A DNA stretch of 64,000 nt from a virus (taxonomy: Duplodnaviria; Heunggongvirae; Uroviricota; Caudoviricetes). The stretch is taken from positions 24,361 to 88,360 of the IMG/VR virus record IMGVR_UViG_3300016484_000450; one strand, 5' to 3'. Below, piece after piece: positions 23,527-62,903 of the stretch; within the stretch, counting starts at the first letter, position 1; every line of letters begins with the position of its first letter. The position numbers were made by a program, and so were the translations under genes. The notes under the pieces were generated by a model, which searched no databases, was not told where the DNA came from, and saw only the letters and a list, made by a program, of their open reading frames with translations.

Positions 23527-24379
23527 TAACCCAATTAACAACATTGATTGAATTATCATATTTTATTCTAATTAAAGATACCCCATTTTGTACACAATAT
23601 TGGTTTTTTATTTCATCACATTTTTGTGTATATTTAAGGTTGACACCTTTTTTATCTTTAAAATGTGGTTGAAAATGTTGTATACCATCATATTCTATAC
23701 ATAAATTTAAAGAAGGGATGTAAAAATCAAATTTTAATAGGCGTTTAAATTTACAACCATTAAAAGTTTTTTGTTTAATATAATTAAACCCTAGATTATC
23801 TAGTAACATACCAAGACCGGCCTCCCCTTTTGATGTACAGCAAGATGGGCAACCTTGATTATGTGATAAATGTGTGTCTGGTCTTTGATTAAATTTACCA
23901 TGTTTTTTACAAATTATTGTTACTGGTGTTTTGTTATTAATGTAATTAACTAAACTATAATCATATTTATCACCATTTATATTTTTTGATTTTATAATAA
24001 AATATTCTGTATTACATTTTATATTCCCACTACATAAAGAACAACCTTTACCATACATATGACTTTTGGCTACTTGCTCAAATATACCGTGGTTAGGACA
24101 AATTATTTTTACTAATTCATATTGATTATTGTAGACAACCAAAGAGTAATCATATTTGTTACCATGCTTTTCTTTTGATCTTTTTATAAATGATTGTGAG
24201 TCTAATTTATTAACTGATGTCCTATTTAAAATTTTTAAATTTAAATAACTTACTTTAGCTTTTATTTTATTTATAGGTATATTTAATTTTTCAGCACACC
24301 ATTTAGCACCCATACAAGGGTAATTTTTTATTATAAAATCTATCTCATGTTTAGTATATTTATGATGTTTATTAGGCAT
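23474..24379 (-). CDS. homing endonuclease-like protein (tandem Zn-ribbon repeats + Vsr/DUF559-like PD-(D/E)XK domain)
   Basis: Two repeats match KYDYSLV...ICxxHGxFxQ...H..GCxxC. The C-terminus FDFYIPSLNLCIEYDGIQH...K resembles Vsr-like very-short-patch-repair nucleases found in phage homing endonucleases. It is an isolated minus-strand gene in a plus-strand block. Confidence 0.45.
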   Translation of the reverse strand: MPNKHHKYTKHEIDFIIKNYPCMGAKWCAEKLNIPINKIKAKVSYLNLKILNRTSVNKLDSQSFIKRSKEKHGNKYDYSLVVYNNQYELVKIICPNHGIFEQVAKSHMYGKGCSLCSGNIKCNTEYFIIKSKNINGDKYDYSLVNYINNKTPVTIICKKHGKFNQRPDTHLSHNQGCPSCCTSKGEAGLGMLLDNLGFNYIKQKTFNGCKFKRLLKFDFYIPSLNLCIEYDGIQHFQPHFKDKKGVNLKYTQKCDEIKNQYCVQNGVSLIRIKYDNSINVVNWVTNDPPFLDSLSNNLTHL

Positions 24380-58047: not shown

Positions 58048-58423
58048 TTTTGATGATTCAATAAATCTTAATATGACTTCTGTTATTGTTAATGGGGGTA
58101 CAAGAAGATTACGTGCAACATGGTCACCTGAACTAGCTCAAGATTTACAAGCGTATCATGGATTAAGCATCGAAGATGAATTAACAAGGTTATTATCTGA
58201 AGAAATTACTAGAGGTATTGATAGGGAAATTTTTAATACCATCACTCAAGATTTAGTAACCGTACAACCGTTAGGACCACCAACTGGACAACTTTTTTAT
58301 TTTGATTTTCATTACGAAATATCAGACCCCAAAGTTTACGATGATGGTTCCTGGAGCCTTGGAAATACTTTTGAAAGTTCTATAGGTTTTAAGATAGAAA
58401 TATTGCCACATAAGTTTATTTAG
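58016..58423 (+). CDS. hypothetical protein
   Basis: 135 aa. The start is uncertain; an alternative ATG lies at 58073. Confidence 0.3.
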   Translation: MEPIRKIPKFNFDDSINLNMTSVIVNGGTRRLRATWSPELAQDLQAYHGLSIEDELTRLLSEEITRGIDREIFNTITQDLVTVQPLGPPTGQLFYFDFHYEISDPKVYDDGSWSLGNTFESSIGFKIEILPHKFI

Positions 58424-58998: not shown

Positions 58999-59028
58999 TT
59001 GACATTTAGATAACTTTTACTATCTTTG
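58999..59028 (+). promoter_or_regulatory. promoter-like element (TTG, 19-bp spacer, TATCTTTG)
   Basis: Intergenic, between two terminators and upstream of the tRNA array. Confidence 0.35.
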
Positions 59029-59065
59029 TATCATATTTAATATAAACGTATAATTTTAACAAGAA

Positions 59066-59314: not shown

Positions 59315-59387
59315 TGTCCTTTGGTGTAATTGGCAACACGTCTGATTTTGGTTCAGAAGAGTCCAGGTTCGATCCCTGGAGGGATAA
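59315..59387 (+). tRNA. tRNA-Gln (anticodon TTG)
   Basis: Hand-folded cloverleaf. Acceptor TGTCCTT/AGGGATA (two G-U pairs). D-arm GTGT/ACAC. Anticodon stem TCTGA/TCAGA with loop TTTTGGT. T-arm CCAGG-TTCGATC-CCTGG. Confidence 0.6.
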
Positions 59388-59394
59388 CAAAAAT

Positions 59395-59469
59395 GGTGAG
59401 GTAGCTCAGTTGGTTTAGAGCGTAGGATTCATAACCCTAAGGCCGGAGGTTCGAACCCTCTTCTCACTA
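59395..59469 (+). tRNA. tRNA-Met or Ile2 (anticodon CAT)
   Basis: Acceptor GGTGAGG/TCTCACT. D-arm GCTC/GAGC. Anticodon loop TTCATAA. T-arm GGAGG-TTCGAAC-CCTCT. One A-C mismatch closes the anticodon stem. Confidence 0.6.
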
Positions 59470-59486
59470 CGATAAATAAAATAAAT

Positions 59487-59558
59487 GCCCCATAAGCATA
59501 TATGGTGATGTACCTGGTTTGTACCCAGGGGAAGGCGATTCGAGTTCGTCATGGGGGT
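59487..59558 (+). tRNA. tRNA-Thr (anticodon TGT)
   Basis: Anticodon arm CCTGG-TTTGTAC-CCAGG is perfect. T-arm GGCGA-TTCGAGT-TCGTC. Acceptor GCCCCAT/ATGGGGG has a G1-G72 mismatch. The D-stem is only 3 bp. Confidence 0.5.
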
Positions 59559-59567
59559 CTGATAATT

Positions 59568-59993
59568 ATGAAAACAATGAAAAAATGTAGTAAATGTAAT
59601 ATAGAAAAAGATTTATCTGAGTTTTTTTTTAAAAATAAAGAAAAAGGTATATTACATGCATGTTGTAAAGAATGTAAACGTGATTTAGATAGAAAATCTT
59701 ATCATAATAATAGTGAAAGGAAACAAAAAATTAGAAAAAGAGCTAATGAACAAAAAAAATACATATTAGAATATATTAGGAGAGTTAAATCTATTAGTAG
59801 TTGTAATATGTGTGGTGATAAAAGATGGTATGTTTTAGATTTTCATCATATAAAGGATAAAGAATTTAACATTACAGATTTAGGTACTAGAGGAGCTTCA
59901 ATAGAAAAATTTAAAAGGGAAATTAGAAAATGTATCACGTTATGTGCTAATTGTCATAGGGAAGTACATTATTTAGAAAGAAAGGTGTTGTAG
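59568..59993 (+). CDS. HNH homing endonuclease embedded in the tRNA array
   Basis: CxxC...CxxC zinc ribbon. HNH core DFHHIKDKEFNITDL...LCANCHREVH. The start was moved to the ATG at 59568 because the track start lies inside tRNA-Thr. The stop codon TAG (59991-59993) lies inside the 5' end of tRNA-Phe. Confidence 0.7.
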   Translation: MKTMKKCSKCNIEKDLSEFFFKNKEKGILHACCKECKRDLDRKSYHNNSERKQKIRKRANEQKKYILEYIRRVKSISSCNMCGDKRWYVLDFHHIKDKEFNITDLGTRGASIEKFKREIRKCITLCANCHREVHYLERKVL

Positions 59994-60056
59994 CTCAGTT
60001 GGTAGAGCACTTGACTGAAGATCAAGGTGTCACTGGTTCGATTCCAGTCAACACCA
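59984..60056 (+). tRNA. tRNA-Phe (anticodon GAA)
   Basis: Perfect cloverleaf. Acceptor GGTGTTG/CAACACC. D-arm GCTC-AGTTGGTA-GAGC. Anticodon stem CTTGA/TCAAG with loop CTGAAGA. T-arm ACTGG-TTCGATT-CCAGT. Confidence 0.85.
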
Positions 60057-60117
60057 CGAGAAAGGACTGTTACTAATTCATAGGGACCCAGTTGTGTTTG
60101 CGTAGAATTAGAATTAA

Positions 60118-60191
60118 CGAGTAGTAGAGGAGTGGTTTATCTCGCCTGTTTTGGGAACAGGAGCACACAGGTTCGAATCCTGTCTATTCGA
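60118..60191 (+). tRNA. tRNA-Pro (anticodon TGG)
   Basis: Acceptor CGAGTAG/CTATTCG (one G-U). Anticodon arm CCTGT-TTTGGGA-ACAGG. T-arm ACAGG-TTCGAAT-CCTGT. Confidence 0.75.
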
Positions 60192-60197
60192 CAATTT

Positions 60198-60270
60198 GGT
60201 CCTGAAGTTCATTTGGATGAACACCCCCTTGGTATGGGGGAGGTAGTCAGTTCGAATCTGTCCAGGACCT
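60198..60270 (+). tRNA. tRNA-Thr (anticodon GGT)
   Basis: Acceptor GGTCCTG/CAGGACC is perfect. D-arm GTTC-ATTTGGAT-GAAC. Anticodon arm CCCCC-TTGGTAT-GGGGG. The T-stem GTCAG/CTGTC has one T-T mismatch. Confidence 0.65.
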
Positions 60271-60281
60271 CTTAATAATTT

Positions 60282-60354
60282 GGGGATATAACTCAATTGG
60301 AAGAGTGTCACGCTTACATCGTGAATGTTAGGGGTTCGAGTCCCTTTATCCCTA
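60282..60354 (+). tRNA. tRNA-Val (anticodon TAC)
   Basis: Acceptor GGGGATA/TATCCCT. D-arm ACTC-AATTGGAA-GAGT. Anticodon arm TCACG-CTTACAT-CGTGA. T-arm AGGGG-TTCGAGT-CCCTT. Confidence 0.8.
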
Positions 60355-60361
60355 CTATTAA

Positions 60362-60435
60362 GTCCCCATGGCGGAATTGGTATACGCGTCAGATTTAGGA
60401 TCTGAATTTTGTAGGTTCGAACCCTACTGGGGATA
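60362..60435 (+). tRNA. class-I tRNA with anticodon TAG (Leu-type CUA decoder, short variable arm; isotype uncertain)
   Basis: Acceptor GTCCCCA/TGGGGAT with discriminator A. Anticodon arm TCAGA-TTTAGGA-TCTGA is perfect. T-arm GTAGG-TTCGAAC-CCTAC. The 5-nt variable loop is unlike canonical bacterial tRNA-Leu. Confidence 0.6.
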
Positions 60436-60486
60436 CAAAAAAATCATACTTTTATCTTTTATAATATATTTATTAATAAAATTTTT

Positions 60487-60927
60487 ATGAAAAATAAAGT
60501 GATAAGATTAAATGAGTCTGACATTGAAAGAATTGTTAAAAAAATAATGAAAGAAAATGACGATGAAGGTGGTGTAAAATTATATTGTTCCAAATTCCAA
60601 AATGGTGTTGAAACTTTAAAAACTGAAATACCAGAAAGAGTTTTTACAATAGACGGGTACGTAGTCGCTGAGAGACTTCTTGAGGGTGTACTATTTGATG
60701 TTTATTTTAATTCACGTGGTGAGGTTTTAAATGTTGAGGTACCTAATGAGAGACATAGAGTTTGGTTTGAATCTACTTTTAACTCTAATCGTTATTATGA
60801 ACTAGTCCGCGAGACAGCTATAGATCTTATATTAGACGGTGAAGAGGTAGATGTACCTAGATTTATAAAGGATAGATATTTTAGAAATGGTATAAACACT
60901 GCTTACATTGTTAATGAAAGAGGATAA
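60487..60927 (+). CDS. hypothetical protein flanked by duplicated tRNA copies
   Basis: 146-aa ORF lying between two roughly 85% identical copies of the tRNA(TAG) region. No motif recognised. Confidence 0.4.
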   Translation: MKNKVIRLNESDIERIVKKIMKENDDEGGVKLYCSKFQNGVETLKTEIPERVFTIDGYVVAERLLEGVLFDVYFNSRGEVLNVEVPNERHRVWFESTFNSNRYYELVRETAIDLILDGEEVDVPRFIKDRYFRNGINTAYIVNERG

Positions 60928-60969
60928 ACACTACCAAACCGTTAATCTTGAACATTTATCCCTACTATA

Positions 60970-61044
60970 TGTCCCATGGTGGGATTAGGTATATGTGTTA
61001 GATTTAGGATCTGAATTTTGTAGATTCGAATCCTACTGGGGTAC
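60970..61044 (+). tRNA. diverged second copy of tRNA(TAG); possibly a pseudo-tRNA
   Basis: About 85% identical to 60362-60435 and carries the flanking remnant tttatccctacta of the tRNA-Val 3' end. The anticodon loop TTTAGGA is identical. Several stem G-C pairs are replaced by G-U, consistent with C-to-T transitions. Followed by a T-run. Confidence 0.4.
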
Positions 61045-61084
61045 TTTTTTGTTTTATAAGATATTTATTAATAAATAAAATACT

Positions 61085-61669
61085 ATGAGTAGATTAATAA
61101 CAAAAGAAGCTTTAATGAGAGCTAATAAACTCAATGAAGAGTCTGAAGAAAGTGATAACAATTTAAAATCTGTTAAAGAACCTAAATTATATAAGTTAAG
61201 TGATAAAGTTATAAAAACTTTAAACGATAGAATTAAAGATGAGTACACGGCTCATTATTATTATAGAGCAGCATCAAACTGGTGTAATGACAGAAATTAT
61301 AAAAAAGCTGCTGAATTTTTCAAAAATGAGGCTAATGATGAATTAGAACACGCCACTTTAATACAAGAATATATGGCAGGTTTTAATATTTTACCTAACA
61401 TACAAAAAACTGAAACAAATCATGAGTTTGATAATTTAGTTGATATTGTTTATGGGGCTTATGAAATGGAGTTAGGTTTAATGGAAAGTTATAATGACGA
61501 TTCACATTCAATATTTTTAAATGATTTAACCACATTTGATTTCTTACAACAATTCAGAGAAATCCAAAGAGGAGCTGTCGTTGAATATAATGATTTGATT
61601 AACGCGATTGAATTAATTGATAAGACAGATAAATTCCAAGTACTTTATTTCGAACAAACTTATTTTTAA
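61085..61669 (+). CDS. ferritin-like protein
   Basis: LNDRIKDEYTAHYYYRAASNWCNDRNYKKAAEFFKNEANDELEHATLIQEYM parallels the ferritin helix A/B ferroxidase pattern (E...Y ... E..H). It has an N-terminal extension of about 30 aa and is followed by a terminator. Confidence 0.55.
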   Translation: MSRLITKEALMRANKLNEESEESDNNLKSVKEPKLYKLSDKVIKTLNDRIKDEYTAHYYYRAASNWCNDRNYKKAAEFFKNEANDELEHATLIQEYMAGFNILPNIQKTETNHEFDNLVDIVYGAYEMELGLMESYNDDSHSIFLNDLTTFDFLQQFREIQRGAVVEYNDLINAIELIDKTDKFQVLYFEQTYF

Positions 61670-61719: not shown

Positions 61720-61752
61720 TGTTTTAGTGTTGTTTAATTAAAAAAAGATTTA

Positions 61753-61760
61753 TATCTTTG
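61753..61760 (+). promoter_or_regulatory. TAnnTTTG -7 promoter motif
   Basis: TATCTTTG lies 8 nt upstream of the ATG at 61768, directly after the ferritin terminator. Confidence 0.35.
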
Positions 61761-61767
61761 TTGAGTT

Positions 61768-61959
61768 ATGAAATATTTTAAACTGTTTTTAATGTGGTTA
61801 ACAGTTATTGTTATCACAACTTATTACGGGGATTACCTTGTAAGTAGAGAAGTAAACGGGTTCATCCAACTTTTAGGTTTCGTTGGAATGGTTGCACTCG
61901 TAGGATTAGTAGTAAACGAAACCATCAAAGTTTTAAATAATAAAAAAGAAGAAAAATGA
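61768..61959 (+). CDS. small membrane protein (NfeD-like partner candidate)
   Basis: 63 aa with two hydrophobic segments. ATGA overlap with the SPFH gene. A TATCTTTG motif lies 8 nt upstream. Confidence 0.35.
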   Translation: MKYFKLFLMWLTVIVITTYYGDYLVSREVNGFIQLLGFVGMVALVGLVVNETIKVLNNKKEEK

Positions 61960-62903
61960 TTAGTACAGTAATTTTTGTAGTGTGTTTAATTGCGGCTATC
62001 CTTACCGCTCTAAAAACTAGAGGTAACATGTTTGTGGCACAAGAGGGTCGGTATGGTAATACAGATAGGTTCAATCCGTCTTGGTTAATTAAACCTATTA
62101 GTATCTTTGTTGCAGGTATCATTATCGCAATGGTTCAGCCATTCGCGATTGAAAAAGTTGACGCAGGTCACAAAGGATTAAAAATCAATTTGGTTGGAGA
62201 CCAGAGGGGTGTATCAAGTTACCAATATAAAACAGGTTGGGTGTTTTTTAATACTTGGACTGAACAGGTATTAGAGTTCCCAACATATCAGCAACACATT
62301 GAGTATGAAGACCAAGGTGTGATTCTTAAAGGTGGGTTCTCAGCAACAATTAAACCAACATTTAACTATTCTTTACGTGAAGATGCTATTGGTGATATGT
62401 TTGTTAATTTGAGGTTACCTATTAATGAAATAGAAAAAGGTTGGTTAAAAAACGCTATTATTGGAGCAGTTAATGACGTAGCTAACACATGGGAGGTAGA
62501 TAGTATTTTTAATCACCGACAAGCTTTTGAATCAGCAATTGTGTTGGAATGTAATAACCGATTGTCAAAGTGGTTTAATGTATCTCAGTTAAGAACAAAT
62601 ATCACACCACCTGAGGCTTTACAAGAATCTATCATCGCTAAAACAAAGGCTATCCAACAAGCTGAAGCTTCTGAACAACAAGCTATCGCAGCAATTGCGG
62701 AAGGTAAACGAAAGGTGGCAGTGGCAAGAGCGGATTCAGCTGAGACTATTATTAACGCTAACGCGGCAGCATTGGCAATCAAGATTAAACAAGACCGATT
62801 GACACCGTTGTATATTGAATACTTGAAAGCTAACGCATGGGATGGAAAATTACCAACAACAGTGGCAGGTAATTCAGGAATGTTCTTAAACTTGAATAAA
62901 TAA
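61956..62903 (+). CDS. SPFH/band-7 (stomatin/prohibitin-like) membrane protein
   Basis: N-terminal TM helix, then a core with GLKINLVGDQRGV. The C-terminal Ala/Glu/Gln-rich helical region (AIQQAEASEQQAIAAIAEGKRKVAVARADSAE) is typical of SPFH proteins. Confidence 0.5.
   Translation: MISTVIFVVCLIAAILTALKTRGNMFVAQEGRYGNTDRFNPSWLIKPISIFVAGIIIAMVQPFAIEKVDAGHKGLKINLVGDQRGVSSYQYKTGWVFFNTWTEQVLEFPTYQQHIEYEDQGVILKGGFSATIKPTFNYSLREDAIGDMFVNLRLPINEIEKGWLKNAIIGAVNDVANTWEVDSIFNHRQAFESAIVLECNNRLSKWFNVSQLRTNITPPEALQESIIAKTKAIQQAEASEQQAIAAIAEGKRKVAVARADSAETIINANAAALAIKIKQDRLTPLYIEYLKANAWDGKLPTTVAGNSGMFLNLNK

Follow-up and report, generated by a model that had tools for sequence, protein, structure and literature searches.

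Can a tRNA with a five-nucleotide (nt) variable loop serve as a leucine tRNA in a phage, and why does it stand there in two diverged copies on either side of a gene? Both questions arise from a 64,000-nt stretch of the Caudoviricetes record IMGVR_UViG_3300016484_000450 (IMG/VR, positions 24,361 to 88,360), hereafter the window. A tRNA with a UAG anticodon lies at 60362-60435 (copy 1) and a diverged copy at 60970-61044 (copy 2). A sequence-only reading had noted that the two copies bracket an open reading frame (ORF) at 60487-60927, and these coordinates are confirmed. We report that the window locus holds a leucine tRNA of standard meaning together with a dead second copy, and that this type of tRNA is already known, though little documented. 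Both copies, and the genes and repeat pieces described with them, are on the plus strand.

Structure and leucine identity of copy 1

ARAGORN calls copy 1 as tRNA-Leu(tag) at 60362-60436, Rfam model RF00005 matches 60362-60435 with 63.4 bits (gathering threshold, 29), and the minimum-energy fold is the cloverleaf (-24.8 kcal/mol). The acceptor stem is GTCCCCA/TGGGGAT, with G1·U72, and the D stem has three base pairs, with G13·A22. The anticodon arm TCAGA-TTTAGGA-TCTGA has a 7-nt loop that carries U33, UAG at 34-36 and G37; the T arm is GTAGG-TTCGAAC-CCTAC. The variable loop, ATTTT, is 5 nt long and is not the class II long variable arm of bacterial tRNA-Leu. The discriminator A73 is the A at 60435. 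The clean cloverleaf, UAG anticodon, 5-nt variable loop and discriminator A that had been read from the letters are confirmed, and the ARAGORN isotype of copy 1, Leu(UAG), is as it had been read.

In Escherichia coli, leucine identity depends on A73, A15-U48, G18G19, A20a, U8-A14 and D/T-loop contacts; the sequence and folding of the long arm are uncorrelated with leucylation, and the arm is characteristic of tRNA-Leu but not an identity element (PMC9976931). According to the summary given in that paper, engineered arm-less E. coli tRNA-Leu is still active (Asahara 1993/1998, Larkin 2002). The E. coli leucine set is complete in copy 1, namely A73, U8-A14, A15-U48, G18G19, A20a, U54-A58 and G19-C56. 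Its D arm, TGGCGGAATTGGTATACGCG, is of the canonical bacterial tRNA-Leu type and almost the same as that of the long-arm tRNA-Leu(UAG) in related phage contigs (TGGCGGAATTGGTAGACGCG in L004-L009; loci used for comparison are cited by number), with a similar one in L167. Counted on the alignments, the identity of copy 1 is 85% with the short-arm allele shared by L161-L163 and 77% with the long-arm gene that L167 has in the syntenic position; the best bacterial short-arm tRNA-Leu genes among the matches listed reach 76-78%. These features indicate an ordinary bacterial tRNA-Leu body in which a 5-nt loop has replaced the long variable arm. A derivation from tRNA-Gln by U35A, considered for some similarity in the anticodon stem (family D1), was rejected: the D arm and A73 are Leu-type, and a long-arm orthologue exists.

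Covariation was assessed over eight viral short-arm Leu(UAG) genes, that is, the window gene and seven others. In this set, 97.5% of the pair cells are paired and 14 of the 20 pairs show compensatory double changes; none of 500 shuffles scored as high, and slid controls were 29-47% paired. U8, A14, A15, G18G19, U48 and A73 are invariant across the eight genes.

CUA codons keep a leucine profile

The short arm and the UAG anticodon had suggested an analogy with yeast mitochondria and thus a recoding of CUA. The body of yeast mitochondrial tRNA-Thr1 is derived from tRNA-His. This tRNA-Thr1(UAG), as described in PMC4267643, reads CUN as threonine and has an enlarged 8-nt anticodon loop. It resembles copy 1 in its short arm and UAG anticodon, but the loop of copy 1 has 7 nt and its body is that of a tRNA-Leu.

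Window proteins were aligned by tblastn with homologues in 163 fetched loci, giving 44 CUA codons at sites with at least five homologues. Leucine is the majority residue at 31 of them, with a mean frequency of 0.61 versus 0.71-0.73 for the other Leu codons. Homologue codons, and not residues alone, were counted, and circularity was therefore avoided. The codon classes at these sites are UUR-Leu (0.41), CUN (0.20), Phe (0.08), Val (0.07) and Ile (0.05); Thr is outside the nine commonest classes, i.e. at most 0.02. These alignments indicate that CUA keeps its standard leucine meaning, with no change of the code. The likeness to yeast mitochondria broke down for each feature that was tested.

Leucine codons are used in the proportions TTA 0.66, CTT 0.13, TTG 0.10, CTA 0.10, CTC 0.01 and CTG 0.01. 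A U34 tRNA-Leu(UAG) would serve about a quarter of them (CUA plus CUU, 23%), which fits the usual role of phage tRNAs. U34 is present in all four-box tRNAs of the window cluster.

Copy 2 is a pseudogene

Copy 2 (pseudo-tRNA-Leu(UAG), 60970-61044) scores 29.5 bits in Rfam, a borderline value against the gathering score of 29. With its default settings ARAGORN does not report it; a call appears once the threshold is lowered. Its cloverleaf has -0.6 kcal/mol versus -21.5 kcal/mol for the minimum, which is not a cloverleaf. The differences between the copies were polarised with L161 and L167 as outgroups. Eight are derived in copy 2 (C11T, A14G, C23T, C25T, G53A, the deletion of 1 nt from the 5' acceptor strand and the absence of nt 72-73), copy 1 has a single derived change (T60C), and three differences are ambiguous. 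A 14-nt deletion takes the 3' acceptor end (nt 71-73) with the discriminator A73 and the trailer. The D stem is left with three G·U pairs only, and an A53·C61 mismatch replaces G53-C61. The tRNA part of the repeat is less conserved than the adjoining untranslated region (UTR), 82% versus 91%, which on the alignment is the reverse of what purifying selection on the tRNA predicts. Copy 2 is thus a pseudogene, a dead relic with the features of decayed tRNA genes, as one of the earlier suggestions, a decaying duplicate, had it.

The changes from G-C to G-U pairs that had been noticed in copy 2 are real at C11T, C23T and C25T, which are derived. U28, in contrast, is common to L167, as is an extra A ahead of G18G19, and both may be ancestral states. 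Because these states are shared, not every G·U pair of copy 2 is a sign of decay. The anticodon loop is identical to that of copy 1, as had been read.

A tRNA and UTR block probably added in front of a ferritin-like gene

The copies are part of a repeat of three collinear pieces, 79.6% identical overall across 137 aligned columns. The left piece is 14 nt at the 3' end of tRNA-Val, 60345-60358 in block 1 and, 100% identical, a relic at 60955-60968 in block 2 (family D19); the tRNA body (82%) is followed by a 34-nt downstream block (91%) at 60447-60480 and 61042-61075. The alignment bears out the earlier observation of a diverged second copy that includes the tRNA-Val end. A homopolymer that had been placed in the shared block is absent from it: the A7 run after copy 1 is not found in copy 2, where the 14-nt deletion falls. 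The 34-nt block occurs at two places only in the window (chance expectation, 0 matches), and for this reason the idea that the repeat is a dispersed promoter element was rejected. Both copies are present in other samples, in L165 and L166 with 100% identity and in L164 with 99.9%. Independent assemblies carry the same two-copy arrangement, which is therefore no assembly artefact.

The first downstream block (family D3) is the 5'UTR of ORF 60487-60927 and contains ATATTTAT at 60466-60473. The second is now the 5'UTR of a ferritin-like gene (61085-61669; PF00210, E = 6e-19) and contains the same motif at 61061-61068. In the window, ATATTTAT occurs 22 times on the coding strand versus 3 times on the other, and half of the sites are within 45 nt upstream of ORF starts (e.g. 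15591, 35210, 43734, 44755, 51366, 56884, 60466 and 61061). This distribution makes it a probable phage promoter or 5'UTR element. On its right side the repeat block ends just past ATATTTATTAATAAA.

ORF 60487-60927 encodes 146 amino acids and has homologues P0002-P0004. It has no Pfam family, no PHROG family and no relative in an IMG/VR search, and its AlphaFold model (predicted local distance difference test score, pLDDT, 86) gave no fold match in the PDB. In L167 and L168 the homologue has 72% protein identity, and DNA identity across tRNA, UTR and ORF (615 nt) is 73.7%. The genes there run Val(UAC)-Val(GAC)-Leu(CAA)-Leu(UAG)-UTR-ORF homologue. In this UTR the last 15 nt before the ATG match the UTR of copy 1 exactly, and AATAAAATTTTTATG is identical. 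Downstream of the homologue in L167 and L168 there is neither a tRNA-Leu relic or second copy nor a ferritin gene. Because these relatives keep the order tRNA-Leu(UAG)-UTR-ORF without a second copy, ORF 60487-60927 is in its ancestral place. The sequence-only reading had taken the ORF for the inserted gene; it is the tRNA and UTR block that was added. This block was copied within the window lineage, because the window-specific Val-Leu junction is present in it. The tRNA-Leu(UAG) in the same position of L167 and L168 is 84 nt long and has the variable region TACTGTATAGTGT, an 8-nt difference from the ATTTT of both window copies; the short arm predates the duplication because both copies have it.

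A third homologue of the ORF is found in L169 (1325-1843), just upstream of a sequence like window 59000-59042, which is the region ahead of the window tRNA cluster, and of a Gln-Gln-Phe tRNA cluster. The ORF family is therefore consistently associated with tRNA clusters.

The ferritin-like gene has 55 homologues in IMG/VR, and in several tRNA clusters it directly follows a tRNA. The sequence (G/A)TATTTAT is found immediately before the ATG of ferritin homologues in relatives. A Val-Leu-ferritin adjacency was found in none of the relatives' loci examined. In two Kehishuvirus records (L001 1656-2132, L002 1649-2125), the gene that follows a short-arm tRNA-Leu(UAG) and precedes tRNA-Leu(UAA) is annotated as DpsA in one of the two. 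Its placement may echo that of the tRNA-Leu relic and the ferritin-like gene in the window; the likeness is one of position.

Short-arm tRNA-Leu in phages and bacteria

The sequence-only reading had treated a short-arm tRNA-Leu as exceptional, which overstated the case. Such genes occur in crAss-like phages, four other viral contig groups and more than 100 bacterial loci, mostly multi-tRNA arrays, and are common in phage tRNA clusters. The crAss-like Kehishuvirus genomes are annotated with tRNA-Leu(UAG) of 75-76 nt and tRNA-Leu(UAA) of 76-79 nt; some of their relatives have an 85-nt long-arm Leu(UAA) instead. A pattern of Leu D arm plus class I spacing yielded three further viral contigs (L158-L160), and the window anticodon arm as a query yielded L161-L163. 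Long-arm Leu(UAG) or Leu(UAA) stands in the same clusters of relatives, and both types occur in bacterial locus L288. The nearest relatives at the protein level (84% amino acid identity) have long-arm versions of tRNA-Leu(UAG). Among the loci found through the ferritin homologue or a TROVE-like protein of the window, none had a short-arm Leu(UAG).

The bacterial scan was pattern-based, covered one genome per species, and was re-called with ARAGORN; it gave at least 120 loci. The counts that follow hold among the matches listed. At least 104 tRNA-Leu have 73-81 nt, with anticodons GAG (38), UAG (38), CAA (13), UAA (11) and CAG (5). A73 is present in 96 of 104, a Leu-type D arm goes with a Leu anticodon in all 104, and 69 are accompanied, within 2 kb, by three or more further tRNA genes. 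There was no tRNA-Phe, though the pattern admitted GAA. Arrays of 22-27 genes in Nostoc and Calothrix carry short-arm tRNA-Leu, as do smaller arrays in many Flavobacterium species, where the Leu(UAG) core is near-identical to the window tRNA (e.g. ...GCGTCAGACTTAGAATCTGAATTTTG... in L248). The tRNAs for Ser (94 of 96) and Tyr (53 of 55) in the same clusters retain the long arm. Bacterial tyrosyl-tRNA synthetase (TyrRS) also requires a long variable arm. Retention by Ser and Tyr tRNAs versus loss by Leu tRNAs fits the synthetase identity rules.

A prophage kinship of these bacterial arrays with the window phage was rejected: a single HNH homologue is the only protein found in common. The Flavobacterium short-arm arrays (L216 82-3273, 3389-3787; L248 939-2036) adjoin genes for an nSTAND3 STAND NTPase, a CI-repressor-like helix-turn-helix protein, an RNase T-like exonuclease and an SPFH/Band 7 protein. 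Two large viral contigs with the short-arm allele also carry a transfer-messenger RNA (L161 8397-8798, L163 11150-11551) with the tag peptide GNVYNNMEIAGLLATSKVAA. In several phage clusters ARAGORN reports a 'tRNA-Met(CAT)' of 84-89 nt and a 'tRNA-Cys' of 84 nt (e.g. L002 2844-2931, L016 1843-1926); these over-long calls could reflect introns, extra arms or miscalls.

Relation to known tRNAs and tRNA arrays

The closest precedent is the type I tRNA-Leu(CAA) of Streptomyces coelicolor, which is leucylated by leucyl-tRNA synthetase (LeuRS) and termed rare by its authors (Fan et al. 2019, PMC6614811). It shares with copy 1 a 5-nt variable loop, a bacterial-type body and U8-A14 as an identity element; it coexists with long-arm tRNA-Leu, and a single LeuRS charges it. 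Unlike copy 1, it is a CAA isoacceptor, is chromosomal, and does not use A73 as an identity element, while copy 1 is known from its sequence alone. The minimalist tRNA-Leu of E. coli are laboratory constructs, whereas the arm-less form described here is natural and widespread. Animal mitochondrial tRNA-Leu is likewise type I, its variable loop being short and its identity lying in A73 and A14 (PMC9976931); it is organellar, has its own LeuRS and has a degenerate core, whereas the core of copy 1 is fully canonical and bacterial.

Long tRNA arrays spread horizontally, are present in phages and adjoin homing endonucleases; in the Anabaena array, 23 of 26 tRNAs are aminoacylated in vivo, a figure for the array tRNAs as a set, and array tRNAs are often weakly expressed (PMC8421152). 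These arrays (Anabaena trn operon, PMC8421152; Tran et al. 2016, PMC4758250) resemble the window locus in their clustered accessory tRNAs, homing endonucleases and sharing between phages and bacteria; the window cluster differs in being small, with eight tRNAs of a phage. Short-arm tRNA-Leu is not mentioned in the main text of either paper. In a literature search the phrase "type I tRNALeu" led to the Streptomyces paper alone, though there may be other reports. The breadth of short-arm tRNA-Leu seems to be under-reported.

The duplicated segment also has precedents. Arbiol and colleagues are said to have described, in 2010, a promoter-flanked modular shuffling in T4-type phages. In T6, a tRNA-Tyr/segB segment was amplified in a SegB-driven manner (PMC13096335). 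In these events, as in the window, a tRNA-containing segment is duplicated, the end points are at tRNA genes or promoter elements, and an endonuclease gene is in the cluster. Unlike T6, the window has a single old and diverged copy, a decayed tRNA, no sign of selection for dosage, and an HNH gene outside the repeat.

Explanations of the locus

We consider it likely that copy 1 is a functional short-arm tRNA-Leu and that copy 2 is the dead relic of a block duplicated in front of the ferritin-like gene. Copy 1 belongs to a widespread family of short-arm tRNA-Leu in phage clusters and horizontally spread bacterial arrays. The host LeuRS would charge it with leucine through A73 and the elbow where the D and T loops meet, with no need for the long arm. 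It would then read CUA, and probably other CUN codons by U34 wobble, as leucine, and so supplement the leucine decoding of an AT-rich phage. A block made of the tRNA-Val 3' end, tRNA-Leu and the promoter-like 5'UTR would have been duplicated once and placed before the ferritin-like gene, by a recombination with promoter-like motifs at one end and, at the opposite end, an illegitimate junction that falls within the T arm of tRNA-Val. No reading of the duplicate is simpler. The ferritin-like gene would thereby have gained its neighbouring 5' region, and the passenger tRNA would then have decayed while the UTR was kept.

Several points weigh against this account. E. coli LeuRS charges type II tRNA-Leu only and fails on the Streptomyces type I tRNA, the charging of which needs features of the Streptomyces LeuRS itself (PMC6614811), so that tolerance of an arm-less tRNA-Leu is not universal, and removal of the arm in Aquifex reduces affinity. 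The leucylation and expression of copy 1 are presumed, as is the competence of the LeuRS of the host. Codon supplementation is likewise a supposition, drawn from phage codon usage. The short arm of copy 1 may have arisen either by arm loss in place or by a swap for a circulating short-arm allele. The mechanism of duplication is suggested by the end points only, with no microhomology or cleavage site demonstrated.

Other explanations start from the same observations. A reassignment of CUA or CUN, with the short-arm UAG tRNA charged with threonine or another amino acid in the manner of yeast mitochondria, has a superficial resemblance in its favour, the short arm with the UAG anticodon, and is extremely improbable. 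Against it stand the 7-nt rather than 8-nt loop, A73 and the tRNA-Leu D arm, and at the CUA sites the profile (Leu 0.61; Phe, Val and Ile together 0.20; Thr at most 0.02) resembles that of other Leu codons; moreover, bacterial arrays hold the same tRNA type beside normal tRNA sets. A deliberate retention of two functional copies, both decoding CUA, for the sake of gene dosage would agree with the identical anticodon loop of copy 2, with its Rfam score just attaining the gathering value, and with the 100% conservation of both copies across three samples. However, A14G, the all-wobble D stem, A53·C61 and the missing nt 71-73 with A73 leave little of a working tRNA; the near-zero cloverleaf energy, rejection by ARAGORN at default, the excess of derived changes (eight to one) and the lower conservation of tRNA than UTR point the same way, and we regard such a pair as highly improbable. 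We also give scant credence to a role of copy 1 outside translation, as a decoy, processing signal or recombination site. Such roles are open to tRNA-like elements and array tRNAs are often poorly expressed (PMC8421152), but the anticodon loop with U33 and G37, the T loop, A73 and the elbow nucleotides are all kept under covariation, and the Leu-type D arm is coupled to a Leu anticodon in every bacterial match listed. The direct repeats around ORF 60487-60927, the HNH endonuclease gene in the cluster and the ferritin genes that directly follow a tRNA in relatives would all suit a cassette that entered a single Val-Leu-ferritin locus through recombination at the tRNA and duplicated the target. 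Nevertheless, the ORF homologue of L167 and L168 follows tRNA-Leu(UAG) and an orthologous UTR with no ferritin gene or second copy downstream, and the presumed starting adjacency is in no relative found; we think this insertion unlikely.

The loss of the arm might itself be adaptive. In this proposal, which adds to leucine decoding and does not replace it, short-arm tRNA-Leu would be a distinct, horizontally circulating accessory class selected for going unseen by those defence nucleases of the host that target the long variable arm of class II tRNAs, by recognition or by cleavage. The route would be confined to leucine because the arm is dispensable for LeuRS, though not for seryl-tRNA synthetase (SerRS) or bacterial TyrRS. 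Septu and retron-Eco7 do cut the variable arm of tRNA-Tyr, and the tRNA-Tyr of T5 owes its resistance to a different variable loop (PMC13096335). Short-arm tRNA-Leu is found mainly in phage clusters and mobile arrays, one array standing beside a STAND NTPase gene. On the other hand, Ser and Tyr tRNAs of the same clusters retain their arms, and relaxed constraint on an arm that LeuRS does not need, with a deletion bias, explains the pattern equally well. We know of no nuclease that targets the arm of tRNA-Leu. The proposal is accordingly speculative, with a small chance of being right, but the link between the short arm and arm-cutting defences becomes a testable question.

For the window itself these results mostly clarify what the tRNA is. 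More broadly, the textbook rule that gives bacterial tRNA-Leu a long arm has numerous exceptions, most of them in the tRNA clusters of phages and in mobile tRNA arrays, with examples from phages of Bacteroidota, crAss-like phages, Flavobacterium, Nostoc and further lineages. In annotation, a short tRNA-Leu should not be flagged as an error or as an agent of recoding. The short-arm set is also a large natural dataset on arm-independent tRNA recognition by LeuRS.

The surrounding locus

The window is phage-like, with a GC content of 29%, and 72 of the 78 long ORFs in its ORF list share one strand. ARAGORN finds eight tRNA genes clustered at 59315-60436: Gln-UUG, Met, Thr-UGU, Phe, Pro-UGG, Thr-GGU, Val-UAC and Leu-UAG. 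The Rfam scan of the window gave tRNAs only and no other RNA family. In the GenBank phage collection the region has no close relative, only tRNA-sized matches. The tRNA-Val(UAC) whose end marks the left edge of the first repeat block is at 60282-60355 (ARAGORN; Rfam, 66.7 bits). The tRNA-Phe and the 60-nt spacer before tRNA-Pro (60058-60117) have 86.7% identity by blastn (window 59981-60115 vs L167 144-275). The spacer is conserved beyond what is expected of a plain spacer and could hold a processing element or a small RNA.

An HNH homing-endonuclease-like gene (59568-59993; PHROG 2255, E = 8e-31) stands inside the cluster, between tRNA-Thr(UGU) and tRNA-Phe. It is part of the context and may have driven rearrangement. 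In bacterial locus L177, a homologue (34% over 135 amino acids) adjoins a short-arm tRNA-Leu. An SPFH gene at 61956-62903 also adjoins the tRNA region.

About 4 kb upstream of the tRNA cluster, at 54108-55532, a large TROVE-like protein is encoded (DUF2828 and DUF7788; PHROG 850 'RNA-binding protein', E = 4e-149), with 214 relatives in IMG/VR. The adjoining 556-nt gap (55400-56200) has no Y-RNA-like Rfam match. Two short, adjacent ORFs at 57802-58047 and 58016-58423 match an internal part alone of the T4 Gp23 major capsid family (PF07068) and have no obvious structural module anywhere near them. A capsid-gene fragment is one possibility, a small protein with a Gp23-like domain another.

Copies of TATCTTTG are found in the window at about 59014-59029, 61748-61763 and 62097-62112, and in L167 at about 1515-1525. 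The Bacteroidota -7 promoter consensus is TAnnTTTG. The copies fit it, which suggests a Bacteroidota host, probably of the Flavobacteriia, and the matches of window tRNAs to Cellulophaga phages agree with this hint.

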